In this document: positions 1,138 to 64,000 of the stretch, piece after piece
How the letters are laid out: every line of letters begins with the position of its first letter
Position numbering within the stretch: position 1 is the stretch's first letter
Virus record (IMG/VR): IMGVR_UViG_3300026255_000001
Coordinates: 17,853 to 81,852 of that record
Direction: 5' to 3' (one strand)
Source of the DNA: a virus
Lineage: Duplodnaviria > Caudoviricetes
Length of the DNA stretch: 64,000 bases
Notes under the pieces: generated by a model
The model's database searches: none
Told to the model about the DNA's origin: nothing
Seen by the model: only the letters and a program-made list of their open reading frames with translations
Program-made: the position numbers and the translations under genes

Positions 1138-3711
1138 ATGTCAACTTTCATCGGAAACATTGGGGTACCGCGAATCGACCGCCACATCAGGTATGACTAC
1201 AATGACGTGGGTGCGGCGCTGGACAGTTTCTTTGGCTCCAGCAACCCGGTCCCGGCGGCGGTTTCACAGCAGAACTTCATTCCTCCGCCCGCGCCGACCG
1301 TCGGGCCGTTGGTTAGCAATGCGCCGCCCCCTGTTGCCGCCACGCCCCAGCAATTCCAGCAGCCGTTCATAGCTCCCGCCGTCAGCCAGCCTTGGAGCCA
1401 GCCCGTTCTGCAGTTCCAGCAGCCGTTCATAGCTCCCGCCGTCAGCCAGTCTTGGAGCCAGCCCGTTCTGCCGGCGCAGTTCTTCTTGCAGACGCCGGTC
1501 CCGGGCTACGCGACGCCGCAGCAAATGGGCATGGACATCTTCGGCGAGGCGCCGCAGGCTCCGGCCGAGCAAGCCCCCGCCCCGACGATCGCCGAGACGG
1601 CGTCGTTCGTGCCTTCGGCGGAGATCATGGCGCCGGAGGCCCCTATCACCGAGCGGTTCGTGGCCCGCGGCCTGCCTACGGCGGGCGAGCTAGTTTCCCC
1701 GCCCCCCAGTTTTGACGGCGGTACGGCCAATGTCCTTGGGCGGGTGGAGGCCGACGCCTACGCCCCTCCTCCTTGGTGGCCGGAAGGCGCCGTCGTGAGG
1801 CGTGACCCGATGGCACCGGGAGGTTTTAGCGTAACGGTACCTGGACCAAAGTCGGCTTCGATGAAGGTTTACCCGGAAGATTCTCCGGCGCTGACCGACG
1901 TCAGAATAAGCCCTCCGACTGAGCCCGACCCGCTCGCGGAGGCGCTTCCTCCGCCGGCGGATGCCCTCGCGGCAACGGTAGGGACGGCGAGTGCGGACGA
2001 CGCCATGCGAGCCGTACCATCCACGCCTGGCGGGCTTTCCGCCGCCCCCAAGGATGACCCAGCGGTCCGGCGTGTTGAGGAGCTGTATATCGCTGGGGTA
2101 GAAGCTGCCGGCACTCCTTTGTCAGACGAGGCGAAGAAAGATTTGTACACGCACATCGTCGATCGTGTTAAGGTGGACGAGGTGTATAAGCCGCGGCTGG
2201 CCGTGGTTGAGGGGCGACTAGGCGGGTTGGATAAAGAAGACCCGTCGTACGATGTGCTGGCCAAAGAGAAAGAGCGGCTTGAAACCAGAATCGGTGCCAT
2301 TGAGGAAAAATATAAAACCACTGTTGCACCAGTCGACAAAGAAGCCGAGCACGCGGCTGAGTTTCTGACTGATGGAGAAAAATACATTGCGGCCAGGACC
2401 GGCACGCTGACCGGTTCCGATGCGACGCAGTGGAATTATTACCAGGACAAAGTCAAGGACTTGGAGTTGTGGCGGGAGGCCGATGCTTGGTCGAGAAGCA
2501 AAGACGCTAGTGAAGGCAAAGACCCGCCGACAAGGCTGGCATCGCAATTCCGATATGGGCAGCTTATAAAGCAGCCGGAGCTCCCGGCTACAGAAACCAC
2601 GGTTGTTGGGCGCATAGAAATCGAGCGGCGTATTTTCGAGAGCCTTCATGAAACCACGCGCGCAGATTTACTGCGCCGCCCCGGGGATATGAATCTCGAC
2701 TCGTTGGTTCAGGCGCGACAGGAACAGCAGCTCGAGCCGTTCAAACTGGCTTTTGAAGGGGCATCCGACCCAGTCATGTCGGGAGGGCTATCCGACGTGC
2801 TTGACGACGCTGGGTTGGAATCGCTGCAAAACGCCGACGGTCTGTTGCGTGAAGGGAAGTTTGCTGCGGCTGACCGGGCATATCAGCAAACTGGCCGGTT
2901 GGCGATCCGTTCGCAATTCGAGCGGGCCGCCTCCGGCAAGGGCGTAATCGTTGGCGGCGACGGCTCGCTGACTGTGGACCCGAGGATGCTCAGCGAGGCG
3001 CAGCAGCTGCAAGCCACCCTCAGAGAGATGTTTGACGCGGCCCCGGAAGGATCTCCTGCGCGAGTTGCCATCCGGTCCCAGATGCTGAGACTGGACCGCG
3101 GCATCGACGGAGCCACCGGCAAGTCGGAGCACATCACCGGCCTGAAACTGTCCGATCTTTACGCCGGGTTGCGGGCGGACATGGACGTCAACACCCCCAA
3201 GGGCGCCACAAAAGAATATGCCGGGCACCTTGGAGAAGTCGGAGAAACCATAAACGACAGGACCCAGCTCACCATCAAGGGGGCGATCGCTACGTTTGAG
3301 CGGTCGCAGGGCCTGGAGCGGGATAAGCAGACTTTGCAGGAGACCATCGACGGTGCGATCAATCTCGGCAGGCGGGAGTTCAAGAACTACGTGAATTCCA
3401 CTCGGCACGGCTCGGAGTTCGGTCGCGAGGGGGTGCTCCGCAAAATACGAAATGACGGAAGCGTCGAATGGAACACGGCCAACATGCTGGCGGTCGGCAA
3501 TCTCGCCCTGCTGGCGCTGGCGCCGCTCGAACGCGCCTACTGGCAGCGCCGGCAGGAGGAGCGCGAGGACGAGCGCTACGACGAAGACTGGGAGCGCCAG
3601 AAAGAAGCCTGGGCGATCCAGAACGGGTACCGGCTCCAGCAGATTGGCGCCGCCGGAAAAGCGTCCCGCGGCGGGGGCAGCGTGGCGGCAGTCCGTCCGG
3701 CAAGATTCTAG
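1138..3711 (+). CDS. Putative internal virion/ejection protein, 857 aa, with Pro/Gln-rich N-terminus and helical C-terminus
   Basis: ATG with AAGGA RBS. N-terminal 20 aa shared with the next gene. C-terminal hydrophobic helix followed by a charged coiled coil. Confidence 0.65.
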   Translation: MSTFIGNIGVPRIDRHIRYDYNDVGAALDSFFGSSNPVPAAVSQQNFIPPPAPTVGPLVSNAPPPVAATPQQFQQPFIAPAVSQPWSQPVLQFQQPFIAPAVSQSWSQPVLPAQFFLQTPVPGYATPQQMGMDIFGEAPQAPAEQAPAPTIAETASFVPSAEIMAPEAPITERFVARGLPTAGELVSPPPSFDGGTANVLGRVEADAYAPPPWWPEGAVVRRDPMAPGGFSVTVPGPKSASMKVYPEDSPALTDVRISPPTEPDPLAEALPPPADALAATVGTASADDAMRAVPSTPGGLSAAPKDDPAVRRVEELYIAGVEAAGTPLSDEAKKDLYTHIVDRVKVDEVYKPRLAVVEGRLGGLDKEDPSYDVLAKEKERLETRIGAIEEKYKTTVAPVDKEAEHAAEFLTDGEKYIAARTGTLTGSDATQWNYYQDKVKDLELWREADAWSRSKDASEGKDPPTRLASQFRYGQLIKQPELPATETTVVGRIEIERRIFESLHETTRADLLRRPGDMNLDSLVQARQEQQLEPFKLAFEGASDPVMSGGLSDVLDDAGLESLQNADGLLREGKFAAADRAYQQTGRLAIRSQFERAASGKGVIVGGDGSLTVDPRMLSEAQQLQATLREMFDAAPEGSPARVAIRSQMLRLDRGIDGATGKSEHITGLKLSDLYAGLRADMDVNTPKGATKEYAGHLGEVGETINDRTQLTIKGAIATFERSQGLERDKQTLQETIDGAINLGRREFKNYVNSTRHGSEFGREGVLRKIRNDGSVEWNTANMLAVGNLALLALAPLERAYWQRRQEEREDERYDEDWERQKEAWAIQNGYRLQQIGAAGKASRGGGSVAAVRPARF
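1351..1470 (+). repeat. 60-bp tandem duplication encoding QFQQPFIAPAVSQ(P/S)WSQPVL x2
   Basis: 1351-1410 vs 1411-1470, two mismatches. Confidence 0.95.
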
Positions 3712-3723
3712 GGAGATACGACC

Positions 3724-4770
3724 ATGGCAACTTTCATCGGAAACATCGGAGTCCCGCGGATCGACCGGCACATCAAGTTCGACTCTTCCAGAGACAAGCC
3801 GGCCTCGACCCCGTCAGCATTAGATTTGTGGCGTGACGCGAATATCAACCGGGCGGAAGGGCTGAAGGTCACCAACCGCGAAACCGGCGTACAAAGCACA
3901 GTCCCTCATTTTGACTCCTCCCTCCGGACCGGCGGCACAAGCTCCGGCAGATCGTCCGGCGGATCGTCCGGCGGATCGTCCGGCGGATCGTCCGGCGGCA
4001 GCTCCGGCGACACCGGCAACGCAAGGGTAACGACCGACCTCGACATGTCGATCCCCGACATCCCGGAATACGAGCCGCTCGACCTGTCCGGCATCGAGTA
4101 CGACCCCGCGTCCCCGGACCTGCAGGATCTGTCGAAGGCCGACACCGCGCTCGGCGCCATGGAGGACATGATCGGCGGCCTCCGGGAGAAGAACAAAGAC
4201 TGGATGGCCGGCAAGGTGTCCGGGGATACGGCGGATCAGTTGAGGTCGCAGGCGGCCCTTAGTGCCCGCATGGGCGGGGCCGGCGTCGACTCCCAGATGT
4301 CCCGCAACCTGCAGGCTCGCGACTTCGGGCTGACCTCGATGCAGATCCAGGAAGCCGGCATGCAGCGCGAGAGCCAGCTGACTCAGCTGCAGCAGAGCCT
4401 GGCCGGGATTCGCGAACAGCGGATGCAGTTTATGACCCAGCTGCGGGAGCAGCAGTCCCAGTTCGGTTCGGCCTTCGAGATGGACAAGGCCAAGGTCGGC
4501 GAGGCGTCCCGGCAGTTCGGGGCCAACCTCCAGGACCAGATGTACCGGACCCAGCTCGCCCACAAGGAGCTGATGCTCAAGCAGGAGGCGTTCAACGCCG
4601 AGCAGAACATGCGCCTGGTCGAGCTGATCACCCAGTCTACCCTCGGGTTCTTGCAGTTGCAGGTCCAGGCGGCTGGGCAGGAGACGGACTTCGGCGGCGG
4701 CGTGAAGACGTATGAAACCCTGCAGAAACAGCTCGAAGAGCTTTGGTCCCGCAGCAATCCGAAGACGTAG
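3724..4770 (+). CDS. Putative internal virion/ejection (pilot-type) protein, 348 aa, Gln-rich coiled coil
   Basis: GGGAG RBS, shared N-terminal tag, GGSS linker and Q/M-rich helical body. Confidence 0.65.
   Translation: MATFIGNIGVPRIDRHIKFDSSRDKPASTPSALDLWRDANINRAEGLKVTNRETGVQSTVPHFDSSLRTGGTSSGRSSGGSSGGSSGGSSGGSSGDTGNARVTTDLDMSIPDIPEYEPLDLSGIEYDPASPDLQDLSKADTALGAMEDMIGGLREKNKDWMAGKVSGDTADQLRSQAALSARMGGAGVDSQMSRNLQARDFGLTSMQIQEAGMQRESQLTQLQQSLAGIREQRMQFMTQLREQQSQFGSAFEMDKAKVGEASRQFGANLQDQMYRTQLAHKELMLKQEAFNAEQNMRLVELITQSTLGFLQLQVQAAGQETDFGGGVKTYETLQKQLEELWSRSNPKT
3946..4005 (+). repeat. 12-bp tandem repeat (GGCGGATCGTCC) encoding a GGSS linker
   Basis: Three exact units at 3958-3993 plus two degenerate flanking units. 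Confidence 0.95.
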
Positions 4771-54216: not shown

Positions 54217-56283
54217 ATGCCTAAACCCATTGTATTTATCGCCGCCCTGCTTCTGGCGCTCCCCGCTTTCGCGCAGACGCGGATGCCGGCGCGCCAGGTC
54301 GAAGCCGACACCAACATGGTGAACATCGCGATCTCCCTGCCGTTCACGGTGCAGGCCGCCCTGGACTGGATCGACGCCAACTGGCCGGCGCTCAGCTCCG
54401 AGAGCTGGTCCAATCTCGACCCCGCCGAGGACACTGTCCAATCCGTCTTTGACTGGGTCGACGCCAACTGGCAGGCCGAGCTGGATGACAGCGGCTGGCT
54501 TTTTCTCGACCCTGAGTCCCCCACGACGCAGTCCGTGTTCGACTGGATAGACCTGAACTGGCGCGGCTCCGGGGAGTTCCTGGCTTCATACTCCACAGCG
54601 GCCTCGACGGCTTTCGACCTCGAGAATCTCCATGCCTATCTGCTGGGCGGCACGTACTACACCAATTATTTCATGACCGTGGTGACCAACGACAGCGGTA
54701 CCAACTACGTGTTCCGGCGAGACGAGAACTCCGGGGTCGAGATGTCGACGGACGGCGGCGGGGAGAACCCGGCCCTGGTGCCGGCGCTGCAATATAATCA
54801 GGGCATTTACGCGGACAATTTCGATAAGATCAACACGAACACGTACCTGACGACCAATCTGTTTCTGTCCCTGGCCTTGGACCTGCTCGATTTGTCTTCG
54901 TACGCGGACCCTCCGGAAGACGACGATTTGGCGCAGATGAGCCGGCACGAAGCCTATACGAATTTTGTGCACCTGGCTTCTTTGTTCGAACAGATGGGCA
55001 CGAACATCACGGAGCTTCCGGAGGGGCTAGACTTCTCGTTCCCCAGTTTGTTTGACAGCATAGACGACTCCCTGGAACAGCTCTCGGACCTGGTAGCTTC
55101 TCCGGATTTCCCGGATACGTTTTTTAAAGTGCCCTCTACCGGCGGAGTGTTCCAGATAGACTGGACAAATGGGTTGGCGCAACTTGTCATCGTGACGAAC
55201 GACAACATGGAGCTGTCGTTCGAGGAAGCGCCACTCGGCCTTTCGGCCCGGTTTGAAATCTGGCTTAAGAATTCTGGCTATACCAACGTGCAATACACCG
55301 GGTACCTGGATCCGTGTACCAACGCCGTAGATCCTGGCGGGAAGACGCTGGTGACGTTGAACAGGTACTACGCAAACCCGTTTTCAACGGATTGGATGGA
55401 GGAGCGGGTTTTCCCGACAGAATATGTGGCCCCGGAGGCGCCGAACACCTCGACCGTGGCGACGGTTTCCTTTACGAGCGTGTCCAACGTGACGATAACG
55501 ACGAACACCTACACGAATTCCGGCGTCATCTATGAGGCGTACACCATCGCGCCGTCGGCTGCCGTGGGAACGACGGGCTCCGCGATCATGACTACGGATG
55601 CGGATAACACGTTCGACTATTTAGTGGTCGGAGGCGGTGGCGGGGGCGGCCGCTCTTGCGGTGGCGGCGGTGGCGGCGGGGTTGTGAGACATGGGACGAT
55701 GACGCTTCTTGCCGGCACGCACGCCATAACGGTTGGTGCCGGCGGGGCCCGCGCTGTAGGCGCACATATAATGGTGGCGGGCGGCACGTCTTCATTCAAG
55801 GGAACGATTGTGGCGGAAGGAGGGGCAGCTGGCGGGAGCGCTTGGACGTGGGGGGACCCAGGCGGCGCCGGCGGCGCTTCTGGGTCTGCGGCCGGCGGTG
55901 TCGCTGCCTTCTATGGCGGCGGAGGCGGAGCGGCTGCTGGCACCAGCCCCGGCGGGAACGGATACACCGGGGACCCGTCGTCCGCGAAAGATGACCGCGG
56001 CGGAAACGGAGCCAACGGATATTTTTCCGATATTAGTGGTTCTGGGAACACCTATGGGTCTGGAGGCGGCGGCGGCTGCTGGAGGAACAGTTCGTCCCAG
56101 GCCGGAAATCCGGGGGCAGGCGCAGGTCATGGCGGTTACAATGGGCATACTGGTTACGACGCAACCTACTACGGGTGCGGTGGAGGCGGTGGTGGGCCGG
56201 CACCGGATGGTGTTGACTCCCCCGGCGGGAGTGGCTATTCCGGCGTCGTGATCCTGCGCCAGGCCGTCGGGGTTGTGGAGTAA
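54217..56283 (+). CDS. Tail fibre/adhesin 1 with a signal peptide and C-terminal polyglycine domain, 688 aa
   Basis: GGAGG RBS; MPKPIVFIAALLLALPAFA-Q; three TVQ..(L/F)DW(I/V)D.NW repeats; DYLVVGGGGGGG...GSGYSGVVILR Gly-rich domain (start corrected from 53620). Confidence 0.75.
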   Translation: MPKPIVFIAALLLALPAFAQTRMPARQVEADTNMVNIAISLPFTVQAALDWIDANWPALSSESWSNLDPAEDTVQSVFDWVDANWQAELDDSGWLFLDPESPTTQSVFDWIDLNWRGSGEFLASYSTAASTAFDLENLHAYLLGGTYYTNYFMTVVTNDSGTNYVFRRDENSGVEMSTDGGGENPALVPALQYNQGIYADNFDKINTNTYLTTNLFLSLALDLLDLSSYADPPEDDDLAQMSRHEAYTNFVHLASLFEQMGTNITELPEGLDFSFPSLFDSIDDSLEQLSDLVASPDFPDTFFKVPSTGGVFQIDWTNGLAQLVIVTNDNMELSFEEAPLGLSARFEIWLKNSGYTNVQYTGYLDPCTNAVDPGGKTLVTLNRYYANPFSTDWMEERVFPTEYVAPEAPNTSTVATVSFTSVSNVTITTNTYTNSGVIYEAYTIAPSAAVGTTGSAIMTTDADNTFDYLVVGGGGGGGRSCGGGGGGGVVRHGTMTLLAGTHAITVGAGGARAVGAHIMVAGGTSSFKGTIVAEGGAAGGSAWTWGDPGGAGGASGSAAGGVAAFYGGGGGAAAGTSPGGNGYTGDPSSAKDDRGGNGANGYFSDISGSGNTYGSGGGGGCWRNSSSQAGNPGAGAGHGGYNGHTGYDATYYGCGGGGGGPAPDGVDSPGGSGYSGVVILRQAVGVVE

Positions 56284-56294
56284 GGGAGACAAAG

Positions 56295-57467
56295 ATGAAA
56301 AGAGCGTTGTTTGCTGTAGTATCGTTTTTGGCGGCGTCCGTCTTTGCCGGGCCTGTCGAGCTTGGAGTTCAGGCGTACATGGCGCAGAACGGGCTGGACC
56401 CCGCCGGGCTGAACCGGCGCGGAGGCCCTGCCCAGGTTCTCATTCGTGACGGGGAGCCTGAGCTGCGCTGGCTTCGGCACAAGCTCCGGAACGTGCCGGC
56501 CCCCAGTCTCGACGCCCTCCCTGGCCCGGAGGAAGCGCAGGCGATCCTGGACGCCTGGGAGGCGTCGCTGGACGCCGGCGCCCAGGCCGCCAAGTCCCCA
56601 AGGCTCAAAGTGCTGGAGAACGAATACTTTGCTCTGCTCGATGCGCTACCCGGTGACCCAGTCCCCCAGACTCCAAGCCTCGAAGAGGCCAAGGCCCTGG
56701 TGGACGAGCGGCTCGGAGTGGCGCTGGCTGCGAAGTACCGTGAGCTGCTCTCGGGGCTGGATCTCGAGTTGTCTCGGTATTCGACAACTTGGTGGGACGA
56801 CGCGGCGAGACACGACGAGACCGACGTGCCCGCGGAGTTCCTGGAAGCGTTGGCAATGACGGACGGAGAGGCCCGGCAGGCCCAGGCGTTGTCCAGCTCC
56901 ATAGCGCTCGTGGTGGACGACACCGGAGAGGTGGTGGGGACTGCTCGCGTGCTGGTCAGCACCGACGGGGTGCCCGTCGTGGTGTCCGACTCGGCCAGTC
57001 CGGTCGTTCCGATCGAAGACCAGATCGCCGCGTTCCTTCAGCGGCTGCCGGTGGAGCGCGCCCGCACTCGTGCGTTGCAGCGTTCCTTGGCGGCGTCTAT
57101 TCCCACGAACGCGGTGCTTGAGGACATTGAAGATTTGGCTGCAGCGTTCCCCCGGTGGGAGGACAACGTTGGGCGGCAGGTCCATCCCGGCGAGTTCTAC
57201 ACCTACGACGGCACGGATGTCTATCGGGTCGTCCAAGGGCACGTGACGCAGGCCGATTGGTCGCCCCCGCTTGCCCCCGCGCTGTTCCTGCATCTCCCGC
57301 CCGCCGGCCCGAGCGGGTGCCCTCCGTTCGTGCAGCCTACCGGCGCGCACGACGCCTACGCAATCGGGGACTGTGTGGAGTTCGAAGGCGCGAACTACGT
57401 GAGTTTGATCGACGCCAACACTTACAGCCCGTCGGCGTACCCCGCCGGATGGGAATTGCAGGAGTAA
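56295..57467 (+). CDS. Fibre-associated protein with a signal peptide and two C-terminal CBM5/12-like modules, 390 aa
   Basis: YRVVQGHVTQADWSPPLAPALF; QPTGAHDAYAIGD.V...G..Y.S.IDAN. Confidence 0.75.
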   Translation: MKRALFAVVSFLAASVFAGPVELGVQAYMAQNGLDPAGLNRRGGPAQVLIRDGEPELRWLRHKLRNVPAPSLDALPGPEEAQAILDAWEASLDAGAQAAKSPRLKVLENEYFALLDALPGDPVPQTPSLEEAKALVDERLGVALAAKYRELLSGLDLELSRYSTTWWDDAARHDETDVPAEFLEALAMTDGEARQAQALSSSIALVVDDTGEVVGTARVLVSTDGVPVVVSDSASPVVPIEDQIAAFLQRLPVERARTRALQRSLAASIPTNAVLEDIEDLAAAFPRWEDNVGRQVHPGEFYTYDGTDVYRVVQGHVTQADWSPPLAPALFLHLPPAGPSGCPPFVQPTGAHDAYAIGDCVEFEGANYVSLIDANTYSPSAYPAGWELQE

Positions 57468-57472
57468 CCGAA

Positions 57473-57763
57473 ATGAAACGCCTTGTCGCCCTCGTCCTCT
57501 GCCTCCTGCCCTCCCTGGCGCTCGCCATCCCGCCCTATCCGACGGTCTGGTACCGCGAGCAGACCGTGCGTAACACGGCCGACATTCGCGCCCTGGAGGA
57601 GTCCACGGTCGCCCGCGAGAGCGCTGCCGAGGCGTCCGAGGGGCTGGCCGGCACCCTGCGCTACCGGGTTGCCGGGGACGCGTCCTACCTTGAAGCCGTG
57701 ATGCAGACCGGCGCCGAGACCTGGGAGTGGGTTGTTTTGAAAACAAACAGCTGGGCCGAATAG
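57473..57763 (+). CDS. Small exported fibre-type protein, 96 aa
   Basis: MKRLVALVLCLLPSLALA-I signal; GTLRYR...MQTGAETWEWV. Confidence 0.7.
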   Translation: MKRLVALVLCLLPSLALAIPPYPTVWYREQTVRNTADIRALEESTVARESAAEASEGLAGTLRYRVAGDASYLEAVMQTGAETWEWVVLKTNSWAE

Positions 57764-57786
57764 GCACTTGAGAAGGAGCCCCTGAA

Positions 57787-58173
57787 ATGAAGAAGATCCT
57801 GGTTACCCTGGCGATCCTGTCGATCCTGTCGATCGCCGCCGCGTCCTACGCCCAGATGGCCGGGGCCCGCAGCCCGACCGCCGTCCGCGACCCCGAAGCC
57901 TCGAAGGCCGTGGTCGCCCTGGAGGCACGGGCGACGGCGCTCGAGGCCAAGGACGCCGCCCTGCAGGCTGAAGTCGACGCGATCGAGCTCGTGGCGAACG
58001 CCGCGATCCCCGCCGCCTCCTTCGCCCAGGTGGACACCAACGAGGTCGCCGACGCCACGCTGTTTACGCCCGATTTCGTCGGGCAGCTGCTGCTCGGCTC
58101 CGAGTCCAATCTGGTATGGGTCGCCGGCGGCGTAACCACCAACGACTGGCTTCTGTTGACTGTGACTGAATGA
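57787..58173 (+). CDS. Small exported coiled-coil fibre-type protein, 128 aa
   Basis: Signal ...AAASYA-Q; heptads VVALEARATALEAKDAALQAEV; TPDFVGQLL...VW.AGG.TTNDW. Confidence 0.7.
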   Translation: MKKILVTLAILSILSIAAASYAQMAGARSPTAVRDPEASKAVVALEARATALEAKDAALQAEVDAIELVANAAIPAASFAQVDTNEVADATLFTPDFVGQLLLGSESNLVWVAGGVTTNDWLLLTVTE

Positions 58174-58197
58174 GGGCCGGCTCCCGGGGAGAACACG

Positions 58198-61100
58198 ATG
58201 AGAAATCAACTGTGCGCGGCGTTCGCCGCATTTACCGTTTTGACGGCGGGCGCCGCCGCCCAGTTGACTCCGCTCGTCGACTACTACCAGCGGTTCGACC
58301 GCGGCATCACGATCGGTACGAACGTGACGACCCTGGTGCCGGGGACGATTCGCTGGAACGCTCTGCTGTCCCAGCTTCAGTATTACCATACCGGCGGGTA
58401 CTGGACCTCGATCGGCAGCGGCAGCGGCGGCGGCGGGGGCGGGCTCGTGGTGCGCAACGTCGGGGAGGACGGGACCAACAGCTGGACGCCGACCGGGATC
58501 GACTTCGACCGGGACACCGGCCTCAACGTGGAACTGGCGCCCGGCGGCGCGGTCAAGGTGTCTTTGGGGTCGCATTGGTACTATCTGGTGGACGGGGCCG
58601 GGGTATCCAACAAACCCAGCGGGCAGCAGGACCTGCGGATCGTGTCGACCGCGGGCGTCTCGCAGGTGCTGTGGGATACCAACACTAGCCCCTGGACGCT
58701 ATATTTCCCGCAGTCCACGGGTCCCCAGGGCGACCCGGGCGTCTCGTTCGGTGTTTACAGGGGGGCTTGGTCCAACGGGGCGTCCTATGAAGCGGGGGAC
58801 TGGACGCTCCACGGCGGGTCGGGGTACGGGGCCTTGACCAACTTCACGGCCGACAACTCGACCCCGACCAACGCCACGGGGTACGGCACGGACTTCATCC
58901 GGCTATGGTACTCCGGTACCGACGGCTCCCCGGGCGTGCCCGGCGTGGGTCTCCGGGTTCGCGGCAACTGGGAGCTCGGTGCCGTCTACGACGCCAACGA
59001 CCTGGTCCGCGACGAGAACAAGCTGTGGTACACCCCCGTCGGCAGCAGCGGAAGGCCGAGCGACAACACCAACCAATGGACGGTGCTGCTGCGGGACGGC
59101 GCGGACGGCATGGAAGGCGTGGTGTTCTCGAATGCGGTCTGGGCCGGACGGTTCAACGCCGACGCCCTGTACCCGTCGAACACGATCGTCTACGCCAACT
59201 CGTACCCATACGGTGGTTATTACGTGCACACGGAGTACGACGGCGCAGCGTACGTCGGCGACCCCGGCGACACGCGGCTCGCGGACACGGGTTACTTTAC
59301 GAAGTTGTGGCACTATGCCCGGGACGGCGAACGGGGCAGCCCCGGCGCCCCCGGCGCCCACGGCGCCGACGGAGCGGGGAACCTGTGGTTCGACCGCGAA
59401 GGGTACCAGAATCTCAAGACCTACACCAACGGCACCGTGGTTATTCACAACGGAGGCACTTATATCTACACGAAGATCGAGGCTGGGACGGCGCCAGCTC
59501 CCGGCGCTCCTGGCTGGGAGACCTATTGGCAGCAGGCCGCCGCGCCGGGGGTGTCCGGTGGCGACTGGGCGTTTTCTCTCGGCTACAGCAACACCGGATA
59601 CACCTACGACAGCGGCGACGTCCTGGTTACGGACGATACCGGCATCGAGGGCTGGTTCTATCTGTGCAAGAGCGATGGAACGACGACGCATCCGACGAAC
59701 TCGGCTCCCGGCACCTGGGAGCTCCTGACCAAGCCTGGGTTCCGCACCTTCCCGATATTGGATCCCGCGCCGGAATACCTCAGCACGACGGCCTACGCCG
59801 TCAGCAACCTCGTTCGGTATAAGGATGAGTCGGACGGCAACTCGTGGGGGACCTACGTCTGCATTGCGGACACCATGGGCAACGCGCCTCTGAATACCAA
59901 TTATTGGGCCCCCATTGCCGTCGGGAAGCGCGGGCCCCAGGGTCCCGCCGGGGCCGTGAAGACCTACTACGTCCACACGAACTCGGTGTATTATTACGAG
60001 ACCAACATCGTGGAGAACAATGTCTTCACCAACAACTATTTTTACAGTGTTGAGCCGTTGGAGCTCGTGGAAACCAATTACTGGGATTTGTTCTTCGCTC
60101 CGGGCGGCGCCCTGACTTTGTACGTTGACGCCACGCCGGCAGGCACCACGAACATCCTCGAGATGGTGGCCGGCACGAACGATACGAACCTCGTGTTGCG
60201 CCCCGACGGTGCCAAGGGGGTGAAGTGGGGCGAAGAGACGGCTGAATCCGATCCCATCTACTCCGCATGGGCCACCAACGGTCCCGGCGCGACGAACGCC
60301 ATCTTGGCGGATGGCAGCCTAGTCAGCATCGACGGGTGGGGGAGCGGCGGGGGTGGCGGCAACCTCACCGCCACCAACACGCCCACGAGCGGGCAGATGC
60401 TCTACGCTTCCGGGACAGACAACGACACGCTGTATTGGGGCAACGCACCCGAGGGCGGCGGCACCGGCACCGGCTGGACGAACCTAGCCTTTTCCGGCAC
60501 CGGCAACGCCATCACGGGCGCGACGGCGGCGGCGGACACTCTTACGCTGCAGCGCGGGGAAATTGAGGGCGGCACCGGCGGCGAGGCGGCGTGCATGGTT
60601 ATTACGCAGATGCCCTATCTGGCGCAGGCGCTTGTGACCGGGACGGTGGTGGCCGTGTACGACAACGCCAACGTCGGGTTCACCGAAACCCTGCTTTTCG
60701 GAAATGCAAATTCAAACTCATTTGTTTTCGAGGAACTGAATGCCGGAACCGTCACGGGTCTGACGACGCTTGCGAATTCCACGACGCAGGGCATTTTGAG
60801 CGCGACGACCGCCGGAACAAAAATCACAAATGGATGCGTTCTGCGGATTGGCGGGGCCAGTTACGGAATTCAAGCCCTTACGGGAGGGACCAACGTCACG
60901 TTTCTTCCGGCGCTGAATAGCAACACGAGTTATGCCGTCGATAGCGTTCGAGGCATATCCCATACGTCCGTTGCGCTGCACCAAGGAGCGGCTGGAACTA
61001 CGAATGGGCCTTTTGTCGCTCTCCCGTCCGGGAATAAAGCCTGGTACGGAATCTCGGTCGCCCCCGACGGCACGACGATCTACGCGACGATGCAAAACGG

Positions 61101-62361
61101 CTCGATCTGGAAGTCGACGGACTCAGGAGCAACGTGGGTCGATCTCGTGGCCGGGAATAAAACCTGGCGTGGCATCTCGGTCGCCCCCGACGGCACGACG
61201 ATCTACGCGGCGGTGCAATACGGCTCGATCTGGAAGTCGACGGACTCAGGAGCAACGTGGGTCGATCTCGCGACCGGGAATAAAGGCTGGACTGGCATCT
61301 CGGTCGCCCCCGACGGCACGACGATCTACGCGACGGTTTATAAGGGCTCGATCTGGAAGTCGACTGACGCCGGAGCGACGTGGGTCGATCTCGCGGCCGG
61401 GACTAAATACTGGTACGGAATCTCGGTCGCCCCCGACGGCACGACGATCTACGCGACGATGCAAAACGGCTCGATCTGGAAGTCGACGGACTCAGGAGCA
61501 ACGTGGGTCGATCTCGTGGCCGGGAATAAAGCCTGGATTGGCATCTCGGTCGCCCCCGACGGCACGACGATCTACGCGACGGTTAATAACGGCTCGATCT
61601 GGAAGTCGGTCGACGCCGGGGCAACGTGGGTCGATCTCGTGGCCGGGGATAAATACTGGCGCGAAATCTCGGTCGCCCCCGACGGCACGACGATCTACGC
61701 GGCGGTGTATGGCGGCTCATACGGCTCGATCTGGCGCTCCGAATGGTCGGCATACGCGCCTGTCCTGGGCGTAGGCCATACCGTAGCCACGATTCCGATG
61801 GCCACGACGACGAATTGGCGGTATTTCAACGATCTCTACTTTCGGGACAACTCCGACTTCGCCGGAACGTTTTATTCCATCTCATGGCAAACGAATTGCT
61901 GGAGCATCTGGAGCACGGATTCCAGCTCGTGGCGCGTGGTCGCGTCCAACGACTCCGGCGCATGGAAATGGAATTCCAACGGGACTTTCGTGGCGCAAGC
62001 GGGGTTGACGAACAACGAGCTTGGAACCTTGTCCTACGCGGTCCAGACGTCGGTATCCAACCGCATGAGCCGCGCCGACATCGACGGGCTGAACGACGGC
62101 ACCTACAAGTCCGCCGGAGGATTTCTGGCCGGGTATTCCCCGAGAACTGCCGTGACGTTTCTGAATCAAACCACCAACCTTCCGCCTCGCGTGTATGAAC
62201 GCCGGGTTCTGGTGGACGACTTGCGGTATGAGCAGAAGATGGCAAGCACGAACGACTACAACCTGTATCTGCCGACGACGAACTCTCCGATCACCGTCGT
62301 TACGAAGAAGGTGGCGCGGACCTGCGACGTCGTGATCAAGTACCTGAAGGATCAACCATGA
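58198..62361 (+). CDS. Tail fibre/adhesin 2 with a signal peptide, CBM-like and collagen-like repeats and a 6-blade Asp-box propeller, 1387 aa
   Basis: RG.W...(Y)..GD.V repeats, GPQGDPG/GSPGAPG triplets, six 41-aa SxDxGxTW repeats. Confidence 0.8.
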   Translation: MRNQLCAAFAAFTVLTAGAAAQLTPLVDYYQRFDRGITIGTNVTTLVPGTIRWNALLSQLQYYHTGGYWTSIGSGSGGGGGGLVVRNVGEDGTNSWTPTGIDFDRDTGLNVELAPGGAVKVSLGSHWYYLVDGAGVSNKPSGQQDLRIVSTAGVSQVLWDTNTSPWTLYFPQSTGPQGDPGVSFGVYRGAWSNGASYEAGDWTLHGGSGYGALTNFTADNSTPTNATGYGTDFIRLWYSGTDGSPGVPGVGLRVRGNWELGAVYDANDLVRDENKLWYTPVGSSGRPSDNTNQWTVLLRDGADGMEGVVFSNAVWAGRFNADALYPSNTIVYANSYPYGGYYVHTEYDGAAYVGDPGDTRLADTGYFTKLWHYARDGERGSPGAPGAHGADGAGNLWFDREGYQNLKTYTNGTVVIHNGGTYIYTKIEAGTAPAPGAPGWETYWQQAAAPGVSGGDWAFSLGYSNTGYTYDSGDVLVTDDTGIEGWFYLCKSDGTTTHPTNSAPGTWELLTKPGFRTFPILDPAPEYLSTTAYAVSNLVRYKDESDGNSWGTYVCIADTMGNAPLNTNYWAPIAVGKRGPQGPAGAVKTYYVHTNSVYYYETNIVENNVFTNNYFYSVEPLELVETNYWDLFFAPGGALTLYVDATPAGTTNILEMVAGTNDTNLVLRPDGAKGVKWGEETAESDPIYSAWATNGPGATNAILADGSLVSIDGWGSGGGGGNLTATNTPTSGQMLYASGTDNDTLYWGNAPEGGGTGTGWTNLAFSGTGNAITGATAAADTLTLQRGEIEGGTGGEAACMVITQMPYLAQALVTGTVVAVYDNANVGFTETLLFGNANSNSFVFEELNAGTVTGLTTLANSTTQGILSATTAGTKITNGCVLRIGGASYGIQALTGGTNVTFLPALNSNTSYAVDSVRGISHTSVALHQGAAGTTNGPFVALPSGNKAWYGISVAPDGTTIYATMQNGSIWKSTDSGATWVDLVAGNKTWRGISVAPDGTTIYAAVQYGSIWKSTDSGATWVDLATGNKGWTGISVAPDGTTIYATVYKGSIWKSTDAGATWVDLAAGTKYWYGISVAPDGTTIYATMQNGSIWKSTDSGATWVDLVAGNKAWIGISVAPDGTTIYATVNNGSIWKSVDAGATWVDLVAGDKYWREISVAPDGTTIYAAVYGGSYGSIWRSEWSAYAPVLGVGHTVATIPMATTTNWRYFNDLYFRDNSDFAGTFYSISWQTNCWSIWSTDSSSWRVVASNDSGAWKWNSNGTFVAQAGLTNNELGTLSYAVQTSVSNRMSRADIDGLNDGTYKSAGGFLAGYSPRTAVTFLNQTTNLPPRVYERRVLVDDLRYEQKMASTNDYNLYLPTTNSPITVVTKKVARTCDVVIKYLKDQP
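61030..61740 (+). repeat. Six 123-bp tandem repeats (beta-propeller blades)
   Basis: Units start at 61030, 61153, 61276, 61399, 61522, 61645; 61041-61161 is identical to 61410-61530. Confidence 0.95.
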
Positions 62362-63176
62362 AAACAGCGACCGGAATTTTGATTGTTTCGCTTTTGGCTA
62401 TCGAGTCGTTTGCCGTAGATTTCCTGCTGGTCCGCGACGGACGCAACGTATGGGTGCGGGACTCCGATCCGTTTGCCTACGAAAGCCGGGTTGCGCGGCT
62501 GAACGGAGCCGAGTCAATCGCGGATGAAACCGGAACCTATTGTCTATACGAAGGCGTAAAGTATTACGATATTGATGCCGAGGCCGAGGCACTTCGGGGC
62601 CCGGCGCCCGAGGTCTTCGTGCCCATGCTCAATAGCGACGGGGAGCTGGTGGGGACTGCGCGGCTCGTGGTGATCGCGGGGAGCTTGTCCGTTCTGGCGA
62701 GCACCAACTCTGCGTCGCCGCAGAAGCCTTGGGCCGAGCAGCTGGACCAGATTCTTGCCCAGCTCGGAAGCATAGCCGAGTCGAAGGCGACCGCTGCCGC
62801 CGCGAGGCTTGCGATCAAGCAGACGGTGCTGGCCGGTGACTTGGCGGAGGAAGACCTCGGGCTGATTGTTGATCTGTGGCCCGCGTGGGCCGCCGGGGTC
62901 TCGTACGCGCTAGACGAGCTCGTGAAACACGACGGCTCTTTGTACAAGGTCGTGCAGGCCCATGCGAGCCAGTCGGATTGGGCACCGCCGGACGTGCCGG
63001 CGCTCTTTGCCAAGATCACCCCGCCCGGCCTGATTGCCGAGTGGGTACAACCAACGGGTGCACAAGACACCTACTCCCTCGGAGACCTTGTAACGCACGT
63101 CGGGCAGGTATGGGAGAGCACAGTAGACAATAACTCATGGGAACCCGGCGTGTACGGCTGGGTGGAGGTGGAATAA
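62358..63176 (+). CDS. Fibre-associated protein with a signal peptide and CBM5/12-like modules (paralog of 56295-57467), 272 aa
   Basis: ATGA coupling; GELVGTARLV...SASP; YKVVQAHASQSDWAPPDVPALF; QPTGAQDTY. Confidence 0.75.
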   Translation: MKTATGILIVSLLAIESFAVDFLLVRDGRNVWVRDSDPFAYESRVARLNGAESIADETGTYCLYEGVKYYDIDAEAEALRGPAPEVFVPMLNSDGELVGTARLVVIAGSLSVLASTNSASPQKPWAEQLDQILAQLGSIAESKATAAAARLAIKQTVLAGDLAEEDLGLIVDLWPAWAAGVSYALDELVKHDGSLYKVVQAHASQSDWAPPDVPALFAKITPPGLIAEWVQPTGAQDTYSLGDLVTHVGQVWESTVDNNSWEPGVYGWVEVE

Positions 63177-63625
63177 TGAAATACGCTCAAATCTTCGCCA
63201 TCGGAACGATCCTCGCCATGCTCTCCCTGCTGGTGGGCGGGGGGTGCTCAACCACCGGAAACGGGCGTCTCGATATTGACGCGGGGGCTGCCATCGAAGC
63301 CGCCGCCGCTGGCGCGTCGGGGGACTATGCCACTGCGTTTGCAAAGATTCAGAAGCTGCTCGACAAGCGCAAGGCTATTGGACAGGACATTTCCGTCACA
63401 ATGAAAGCACTCGGCTACACAGAGCAGCTGACGCTGTACTTTGACGGCATGGCCATCGAGGATCACCAGCGGTTCGGGTACAAGCAGGAATGGTTCAAAG
63501 CAGGCGGCGGCGTAGATGCCGTCATGCTGGCCACCGGAACAAAGACGAACACCGCCGCCTCCGCCGCAGAGTTTGACGATCTCATCTCGCAATTCGTGGA
63601 CGTGCTATCGGAGGTGGAGAAGTGA
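63176..63625 (+). CDS. Lipoprotein, 149 aa
   Basis: TAATG overlap; MKYAQIFAIGTILAMLSLLVGGG-C lipobox-like cleavage. Confidence 0.65.
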   Translation: MKYAQIFAIGTILAMLSLLVGGGCSTTGNGRLDIDAGAAIEAAAAGASGDYATAFAKIQKLLDKRKAIGQDISVTMKALGYTEQLTLYFDGMAIEDHQRFGYKQEWFKAGGGVDAVMLATGTKTNTAASAAEFDDLISQFVDVLSEVEK

Positions 63626-64000
63626 TCCCTGCCCTCACCAAAACCGAAAAGACCAAGCTCGCCGGAATTATACTTGGCGAGATCAGCCCGTCGGCGGTCC
63701 TGTTTATCGTCCTGTCTAGGCCGCAGAATACAAAGGAACTCATCGCCCTACTTGGCCCGTTCATTCCCGGCGACACCCTGCGGGAGAAGATTGCCTACGC
63801 CTTCACCGTGACGCGGCCAGCGTTTGACTCCGATGCCCGCTTCCGCGAGGTTGCCGAAGGCGTCCTCGACAAACTACGCGGCGTCACCGACGATGAGGGT
63901 GAGCCGGTTTCACCATCCGACCGGCTGCGGTGTGCGTTTGTTACGCCGATGCTTGCGTATTCGGATACGGGGCTTGTTAGGAGGCAGGCGGATGCGTTGC
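63622..64000 (+). CDS. Hypothetical protein, 3'-partial (MIPALTKTEKTKLAGIILG...)
   Basis: GTGA coupling; frame is open to the window end. Confidence 0.6.
   Translation, partial: MIPALTKTEKTKLAGIILGEISPSAVLFIVLSRPQNTKELIALLGPFIPGDTLREKIAYAFTVTRPAFDSDARFREVAEGVLDKLRGVTDDEGEPVSPSDRLRCAFVTPMLAYSDTGLVRRQADAL

Follow-up and report, generated by a model that had tools for sequence, protein, structure and literature searches.

Do the appendages of a tailed phage leave the cytoplasm before they are joined to the particle? To our knowledge, textbook accounts of tailed-phage assembly place it entirely in the cytoplasm. The question is raised by a 64,000-nucleotide stretch of DNA (the window), which comprises bases 17853-81852 of the IMG/VR virus record IMGVR_UViG_3300026255_000001 (Duplodnaviria; Caudoviricetes), the complete 81,852-bp genome of an uncultured phage with a direct terminal repeat of 127 bp. 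Near its end, at positions 54217-63625, the window carries a cluster of seven consecutive genes (p1 to p7), all on the plus strand, and an earlier note made from the sequence alone had proposed that every one of their products begins with a Sec or lipoprotein signal peptide. All seven starts and cleavage motifs were found at the positions given there. Each N-terminus consists of a basic tip, a hydrophobic core of 13-19 residues and a small-x-small cleavage site, with six signals of the Sec (signal peptidase I) type and one, in p7, of the lipoprotein type. The signals are as follows (window coordinates):

54217-54273, plus strand: signal of p1 (start 54217), 19 aa, cleavage AFA-Q
56295-56348, plus strand: signal of p2 (start 56295), 18 aa, cleavage VFA-G
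57473-57526, plus strand: signal of p3 (start 57473), 18 aa, cleavage ALA-I
57787-57852, plus strand: signal of p4 (start 57787), 22 aa, cleavage SYA-Q
58198-58260, plus strand: signal of p5 (start 58198), 21 aa, cleavage AAA-Q
62358-62414, plus strand: signal of p6 (start 62358), 19 aa, cleavage SFA-V
63176-63244, plus strand: lipoprotein-type signal of p7 (start 63176), 23 aa, GGG-C, the putative lipidated Cys being residue 24

The hydrophobic cores end in Pro, Gly or small residues, and in their length and ends they are signal-like rather than membrane-span-like. Judged from sequence, the N-termini of p1-p6 are very probably Sec/signal peptidase I signals and that of p7 may be a lipoprotein signal, and the seven proteins would thus be genuinely exported. 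Two other export routes were considered. Twin-arginine export was rejected in view of the absence of an RR motif from all seven n-regions. The C-terminal sorting domain of the type IX secretion system (T9SS) had no match in Pfam, which reported no such family for p1-p7 at E up to 0.01; a divergent domain could escape Pfam.

A fixed heuristic rule, which looks for a net positive charge followed by 9-15 uncharged hydrophobic residues and then a -3/-1 small-residue site, was run on all 63 called genes of the 81,852-bp genome. It called 7/7 genes in the cluster and 2/56 elsewhere (Fisher p = 6.5e-8), the latter encoding a 63-aa membrane protein and a 188-aa protein whose gene comes immediately after that of the capsid protein. 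When 400 kb from a bacterial genome were put to this rule, it was positive for 54/641 open reading frames, a normal secretome share, and hence it does not over-call. Signals are absent from the capsid, portal, connector and giant internal proteins in this genome and in the relatives examined, and a search for signals on tail-hub or nozzle proteins of this phage yielded none. The 188-aa protein (genome 12361-12927, upstream of the window) has a textbook signal (ASA-Q), the sole clear one outside the cluster. No family match was found for it, and it was rejected as a member of the p4 family described below because the alignment is limited to the signal.

Conservation provides a stronger argument than these counts. 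The signal of p2 is present in 27/27 complete full-length relatives, in the form of ~10 distinct signal sequences preceding mature parts that are 74-98% identical. It is missing from one related entry of 255 aa, which starts mid-protein, and from p2-related proteins of 215-222 aa in other phages that correspond to the carbohydrate-binding (CBM5/12) part only. Signals were also found in 27/30 relatives of p1, in 6/6 relatives of p5 and, based on the databases' own gene models, in 111/137 representative clusters (50% identity) of the p4 family. A DNA-motif scan for the p4 family gave 15/15, but here the choice of start codons favoured signal-like starts, which makes this count weaker than the 111/137. 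The lipobox of p7 (V-G-G-G before the Cys) is non-canonical at -3 when compared with [LVI][ASTVI][GAS]C; its counterparts at the same position in two related phages keep a lipobox, which reads ...GAG-C in L003 and, in canonical form, ...LAG-C in L010. Among orthologues, divergence is greatest in the N-terminal 18-23 residues, yet their charge, core length and -3/-1 site are always kept. This combination of sequence drift with a preserved physico-chemical layout indicates that the N-termini evolve like signal peptides and unlike a docking helix. Conservation thus argues that the signal-like features are not due to chance. Together with the rule calls, it bears out the proposal that the N-termini behave like real export signals, and the survey of related phages that had been suggested extends the pattern to close and more distant ones.

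The residue that follows the cleavage site is also informative. Gln occupies +1 in 4/7 type-I signals of the genome (the six Sec-type signals of the cluster and that of the 188-aa protein), and in 10-16/45 distinct signals of the clade versus 1/52 in a sample of a Kiritimatiellia genome, a count that is indicative only owing to shared inheritance. The enrichment recalls the Q-rule reported for signal peptidase I substrates of Bacteroidetes and some relatives (PMC5837995).

Which kinds of proteins carry these signals? The genes of the cluster, the parts of their products referred to below and the gene that follows them are (residues are those of the respective protein):

54217..56283, plus strand: p1, 688 aa; signal 1-19, N-module, TNF-like plus glycine-rich domain at the C-terminus, residues 411-688 (nt 55447-56280)
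56295..57467, plus strand: p2, 390 aa; signal 1-18, helical N-domain 20-190, tandem CBM5/12 at residues 281-390 (nt 57135-57464)
57473..57763, plus strand: p3, 96 aa; signal 1-18, mature part without assigned family
57787..58173, plus strand: p4, 128 aa; signal 1-22, heptad coiled coil, conserved C-terminal knob of ~45 aa
58198..62361, plus strand: p5, 1387 aa; signal 1-21, conserved N-module, collagen-like runs, Asp-box repeat region
58720-59958, plus strand: five short collagen-like G-X-Y runs of p5 between repeated modules, residues 175-587
61003-61737, plus strand: Asp-box repeat region of p5, residues 936-1180, read as a beta-propeller
62358..63176, plus strand: p6, 272 aa; signal 1-19, CBM5/12 modules at residues 176-270 (nt 62883-63167)
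63176..63625, plus strand: p7, 149 aa; lipoprotein-type signal 1-23, mature part of ~125 aa without assigned family
63622..64000, plus strand: gene of ~470 aa after p7, continuing through the 127-bp repeat to genome position 1158; without a Sec-type signal

The clearest structural assignment was obtained for p1. The AlphaFold2 (AF2) model of this protein is confident only at residues 411-688, and the low-confidence residues 1-410 were not interpreted. The modelled tip resembles the tail tip of mycobacteriophage Bxb1 (9d93_Qa; Z 15.2, root-mean-square deviation 3.2 over 179 aa, 31% identity) and the fibre of cyanophage Pam3 (7ypx_A; Z 14.5, root-mean-square deviation 9.7 over 212 aa), and the next unrelated rows of the fold search had Z ~7. 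In agreement, p1 matches Pfam Gly_rich_2 (PF21722) with 54.4 bits at a cut-off of 24.3 (residues 453-681), and it matches phrog_2295. The same TNF-like plus glycine-rich fold occurs in Pam3 gp24, the Bxb1 tail tip and gp38 of Salmonella phage S16, and in Pam3 gp24 it recognises the receptor (PMC9608196). The C-terminus of p1 is therefore predicted by the model to have the receptor-binding fold of solved virion fibres. PDB sequence searches returned nothing for p1 or for its tip alone, and a scan of IMG/VR with p1 found no relative.

Pam3 gp24 and p1 are alike in that the glycine-rich domain is distal and follows an N-terminal part of a different kind (PMC9608196). In Pam3 gp24 this part is a domain of helices that docks to the baseplate, and the fibre has a chaperone of its own (PMC9608196), whereas in the low-confidence model of the p1 N-module no docking helix bundle was seen. 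The N-module of p1 comprises ~110 conserved amino acids with three DW(I/V)DANW-type repeats. Furthermore, p1 and 27 of its 30 relatives have a signal, whereas we know of no export signal on the solved glycine-rich fibres, whose N-termini were not examined in this analysis.

The largest protein of the cluster, p5, has the appearance of a modular fibre. It matches phrog_5073 ('tail fiber protein') with E 4.8e-11, and its five Asp-boxes (S-x-D-x-G-x-T-W) recur with a 41-aa period at residues 973-1144. Based on sequence similarity to the repetitive propeller 2ymu (E 4.7e-17), the Asp-box region is read as a propeller; the BNR models of Pfam did not report it, and the ESM Atlas contained nothing for p5.

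Among near-identical phages, both large proteins, and also p6, combine a constant N-terminal part with exchangeable distal parts. Relatives of p1 keep the signal and the ~110-residue N-module on bodies of 378-744 aa. The six relatives of p5 keep the signal and an N-terminal region (~420 aa in five of them, ~45 aa in the sixth) and have five different C-termini; one has a different signal sequence, again with Q at +1. Conversely, L003 shares the C-terminal 590 aa of p5 with 92% identity. The first 77 aa of p6, including the signal, are kept on a different C-terminus in L003, and L010 encodes a 302-aa p6 counterpart with a signal. As far as such alignments tell, receptor-binding proteins that hold on to a conserved anchor vary in this way. 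No match to p1, p4 or the N-terminal part of p5 was found among 50,697 GenBank phage records.

p2 and p6 are likely carbohydrate-binding accessory proteins. Pfam CBM_5_12 (cut-off 26.2 bits) was matched by p2 with 28.9 bits and by p6 with 56.2 bits, and p6 also matches phrog_18593. In the AF2 model of p2 (mean predicted local distance difference test score, pLDDT, 72) the CBM part resembles that of a Vibrio chitin deacetylase (Z 7.8; chitin-binding modules overall Z 7.1-7.8) and, with Z 5.7-6.9, small modules of solved phage fibres and tailspikes. The helical N-domain (residues 20-190) was modelled confidently and matched no known fold. Phages of Gram-positive bacteria also encode such a CBM5/12 pair, there in minor-tail or pre-endolysin genes.

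A different type of appendage is suggested for p4. Its family, represented by 137 clusters, is characterized by the signal, a variable stalk and the conserved C-terminal knob of ~45 aa with a ...TTNDW... motif. The model of p4 is a coiled coil of three parallel strands followed by the C-terminal knob: the predicted homotrimer scored 0.74 versus 0.00 for the best control, its contacts agreed by at least 87% across runs, and the partner pLDDT was at least 86. In a calibration that used two copies and not three, the mark applied to the trimer was reached by 20/30 proteins whose solved structures are pairs of one chain and by 1/23 whose solved structures are single chains. The conserved C-terminal motif of p4 may resemble the foldon of T4 fibritin. 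In IMG/VR contigs and in other phages, p4-family genes adjoin genes for the major head (capsid) protein, the portal or adaptors (examples are L013:8950-9375, L038:1415-1765, L043 ~2470-2800, L053 and L061), and in several unrelated phage lineages the gene lies between capsid/portal and head-tail adaptor genes. This interval is the usual place of genes for head fibres or decoration proteins. Because its family adjoins capsid genes in other phages, p4 looks more like a head fibre than a tail fibre.

For p3, no Pfam or PHROG match was obtained. A paralogous relationship of p3 and p4 was rejected since BLASTP showed no similarity between them. In a database protein of 430 aa (P0159), the N-terminus of p3 (signal and first mature residues) is joined to the C-terminal knob of p4 with 91% identity, a fusion which indicates that the small proteins are modular, too.

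The last member, p7, likewise had no Pfam or PHROG match. It was tested as a candidate outer-membrane spanin (o-spanin) and rejected: the mature protein comprises ~125 aa, and the 470-aa gene intervenes before the gene of a 117-aa single-pass membrane protein. In L010, a separate 77-aa lipoprotein adjoins the 117-aa-type membrane protein. The counterparts of the 470-aa gene in L003 and L010 encode a weakly hydrophobic, Gly/Ala-rich N-terminal stretch that is signal-arrest-release-like. The 470-aa protein, the 117-aa membrane protein and a 219-aa protein downstream may form a lysis cassette.

The idea that the mature parts are fibre- or adhesin-like thus holds for the large proteins, given the fold of p1, the G-X-Y triplets and Asp-boxes of p5 and the domain swapping in p1, p5 and p6; it does not extend to p3 and p7, which are uncharacterised. 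To call the cluster an entire tail-fibre module, as the earlier note did, was too broad, because p7 is a putative lipoprotein next to lysis-type genes, p3 is uncharacterised and p4 is head-fibre-like.

The position of the cluster points to expression late in infection. In genome order, the plus strand encodes the large terminase, a probable portal, a 556-aa protein that is taken as the capsid protein from its position and size without a family match, more structural proteins and a giant protein of 6303 aa. A minus-strand replication block (PolA, primase-helicase, exonuclease, helicase) follows the giant gene, and then the plus strand resumes with p1-p7. The cluster (~9.4 kb, 11% of the genome) continues unbroken over the terminal repeat into the 470-aa gene, the genes of the 117-aa and 219-aa proteins and the terminase, and all genes after p7 up to the large terminase abut or overlap. 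Within the cluster, neighbouring genes are separated by 5-24 nt or overlap by 1-4 nt, and a clear GGAG-type ribosome-binding site precedes and confirms 5/6 upstream starts. The start of p6 (62358) is confirmed less firmly, by a weak ribosome-binding site, and overlaps the stop codon of p5, and p6 may be translationally coupled to p5. The tight spacing and the continuity into lysis-type genes and terminase indicate that p1-p7 belong to the late operon; co-transcription with lysis and packaging genes is thus supported. Promoter and terminator scans of the cluster gave results at chance level only.

The positions of homologues of the cluster genes were also compared among relatives. L009 and L010 have signal-bearing p1- and p2-like genes between terminase and portal, and a block of p5-, p6- and p7-like genes precedes the lysis-type genes. 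In the more distant L013 (84.7 kb), a signal-bearing p4-family gene follows the capsid gene, and a signal-bearing p1-like gene lies within the structural module, upstream of the genes for a 1255-aa protein and for a giant protein of 5049 aa. L014, from another lineage, has three consecutive signal-bearing genes between the head-completion and the tail/giant genes.

Other genes of the genome showed additional features. The large terminase (genome 2166-5000, 944 aa) is interrupted by an insert that resembles a LAGLIDADG homing endonuclease or an intein (match to Pfam LAGLIDADG_3 at residues 300-347), and the terminases of L009 and L010 (599-621 aa) are without it. In the main structural module, an 857-aa protein (window 1138-3711) and a 348-aa protein (3724-4770) have their first ~20 residues in common and then diverge. 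This common tag fits capsid targeting and equally fits a fibre anchor, and the two proteins are possible receptor-binding candidates without a signal. PDB sequence searches gave no match for the capsid and portal proteins or for the structural proteins of 605, 642, 857 and 784 aa.

The host would be a bacterium with two membranes, as suggested by just the lipoprotein and the spanin-like genes. A relative with 77% capsid identity is part of a contig of a Kiritimatiellia metagenome-assembled genome (L015), and a 94% relative of p2 (P0005) is labelled Zixibacteria. Host assignment by such bin labels was abandoned and neither label is trusted; unlike the phage clade, the Kiritimatiellia sample (GC content 67%) is almost devoid of Gln after its signals.

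How do these genes compare with known systems? Phage-encoded substrates of the Sec or lipoprotein pathways are well established and include Lom and Bor of lambda, Llp of T5, spanins and signal-arrest-release (SAR) endolysins. p7 and its lysis-type neighbours fit this class of late substrates, to which the signal-bearing lysis protein RI of T4 (PMC8385771) can be added. However, Lom, Bor and Llp are small and act on the envelope, whereas p1-p7 include large modular fibres with receptor-binding folds, and no sequence similarity of p1-p7 to the Lom/Bor/Llp/spanin class was found in Pfam or PHROGs. In phages of Porphyromonas gingivalis, the products of certain genes bear Sec signals, and Gln is left at the N-terminus by the predicted cut, which was taken as an adaptation to export by the host (Matrishin et al. 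2023, PMC10367356). Those genes were of unassigned function or encoded capsid or spanin proteins, and no tail or fibre protein was named among them, whereas in the phages studied here sets of fibre-type proteins carry the signals. Outside phages, the MAT fibres of Bdellovibrio bacteriovorus consist of a signal, a conserved domain of ~130 aa and a trimeric, phage-like fibre that varies (Caulton et al. 2024, PMC10769870), a layout like that of the cluster fibres with their signal, conserved N-domain and variable fibre. The MATs demonstrate that, in a bacterium with two membranes, phage-like trimeric fibres can be exported by Sec and can fold outside the cytoplasm. They are encoded by chromosomal genes of a predatory bacterium and reside on its own surface or a vesicle, whereas p1-p7 belong to the late operon of a complete phage genome; no sequence relation between the two was found. 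Our literature search retrieved no report of signal peptides on tail fibres and no tailed phage whose appendages are exported before joining; the absence of a signal peptide has even been used as an argument for the phage origin of a fibre-like gene (PMC6199706). Phage-encoded Sec substrates as such are known; here they extend to whole sets of fibre-type proteins.

The reading that we put first is that the proteins are exported and are also outer appendages of the virion, added after the inner membrane has opened; this comes close to an even chance. Late in infection, the appendage-type proteins would be sent over the inner membrane and thus reach the periplasm of a host with two membranes: the fibres p1 and p5, the carbohydrate-binding p2 and p6, the mini-fibre p4, the small partner p3 and the lipoprotein p7. 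Meanwhile, DNA-filled, fibre-less particles would be built in the cytoplasm, and the fibres would join them either in the lysate or as soon as the inner membrane is breached by the holin, so that the contents of the two compartments mix. T4 particles without fibres and P22 heads without spikes can be completed in vitro, which indicates that the last assembly step need not be cytoplasmic. We infer each part of this scheme, that is, export, cleavage (possibly with conversion of the newly exposed Q to pyroglutamate), membership in the virion, and when and where the parts are joined. In a wider form, which is more tentative, every outer appendage would be Sec-exported, processed in the periplasm and added after the membrane breach in this phage and in a broad set of uncultured phages, so that virion assembly is split over two compartments; this would apply to tail fibres and carbohydrate-binding accessory proteins as well as to the trimeric mini-fibres of the head type. 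Several points weigh against export followed by joining. The signal calls rest on a heuristic rule, and the host bin labels (Kiritimatiellia and Zixibacteria) are in conflict. Heads and fibres would remain in separate compartments until lysis, and dilution afterwards would hinder their joining. The structural proteins of 605, 642, 857, 348 and 784 aa have neither a recognisable family nor a signal and could be the real receptor-binding proteins. Non-virion genes with signals are well known in late operons (lambda lom and bor, T5 llp). Finally, the scattered cysteines mentioned in the earlier note are present but few in the mature parts (4, 2, 0, 0, 6, 1 and 0 in p1-p7), which leaves its disulfide idea with little support and oxidative folding as no obvious reason for export.

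Two other explanations were considered. According to one, which is close to the alternative named in the earlier note, the proteins are exported but never become part of the virion; their target would be the infected cell's own envelope, and they would have been recruited from fibre genes by the addition of a signal. Possible roles are the masking or degradation of receptors or glycans (resulting in superinfection exclusion or in less sticking to debris), peptidoglycan binding that aids lysis, and altered adhesion. The CBM5/12 modules (p2, p6 and the p5 repeats) bind polymers of N-acetylglucosamine and might bind peptidoglycan as well, relatives of these modules that lack a signal directly precede the endolysin gene in Gram-positive phages, and the p6-p7 block always adjoins lysis-type genes. 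A lipoprotein, as p7 appears to be, commonly serves in exclusion or lysis (T5 Llp, lambda Bor, spanins), accessory genes with signals do occur in late operons, and the signal-less proteins of the main structural module offer candidates for the virion's own fibres. The signal-bearing genes of the Porphyromonas phages were likewise read as envelope modifiers (PMC10367356). We nevertheless consider this explanation unlikely, though worth serious attention. It would require ~9.4 kb, or 11% of the genome, to be spent on accessory proteins. Receptor-binding proteins are the best fit for the pattern of kept anchors and swapped tips and for the fold that p1 shares with virion fibres, and the homologues in L013 and L014 lie between head-completion and tail genes, as do p4 relatives between capsid and adaptor genes. 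Moreover, no signal for translocation over the outer membrane was detected (no T9SS match in Pfam), and the route from periplasm to surface would thus be unexplained. A dual role, in which virion appendages also act on the envelope, would combine this explanation with the reading that we put first and is possible.

According to the other explanation, nothing is exported: the N-termini would be trimerisation or docking helices, membrane tethers, or pro-peptides cut by a phage protease, and assembly would be cytoplasmic as in all tailed phages studied, in which fibres are assembled in the cytoplasm. AF2 gives the N-termini as helices, with low confidence, and heuristic signal calls are fallible. 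Capsid proteins of Porphyromonas phages with signal-like N-termini have been interpreted as protease-cleaved (PMC10367356). A docking helix, however, should co-evolve with its partner site and stay conserved, whereas the N-terminal 18-23 residues are the most divergent ones here. The lipobox of one member, which is conserved in its counterparts, and the enrichment of Q at +1 are also difficult to reconcile with the absence of export, and the existence of signal-less relatives of the same domains in other phages shows that the N-terminal extension is an add-on. In view of these data, we regard cytoplasmic assembly of p1-p7 as improbable.

If export followed by joining is the true course of events, the final step of virion assembly takes place outside the cytoplasm, and the timing of lysis would be coupled to particle maturation. 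The Sec machinery, the signal peptidase and possibly the glutaminyl cyclase of the host would then be dependency factors of the phage, and, before release, receptor-binding proteins could already affect the infected cell's envelope. In annotation pipelines, such genes would be mistaken for those of bacterial surface proteins, and host prediction could make use of the style of the signal peptides, for example Q at +1. If the proteins are not part of the virion instead, a lytic phage would be investing unusually heavily in the remodelling of a doomed cell's envelope, which is also worth knowing.

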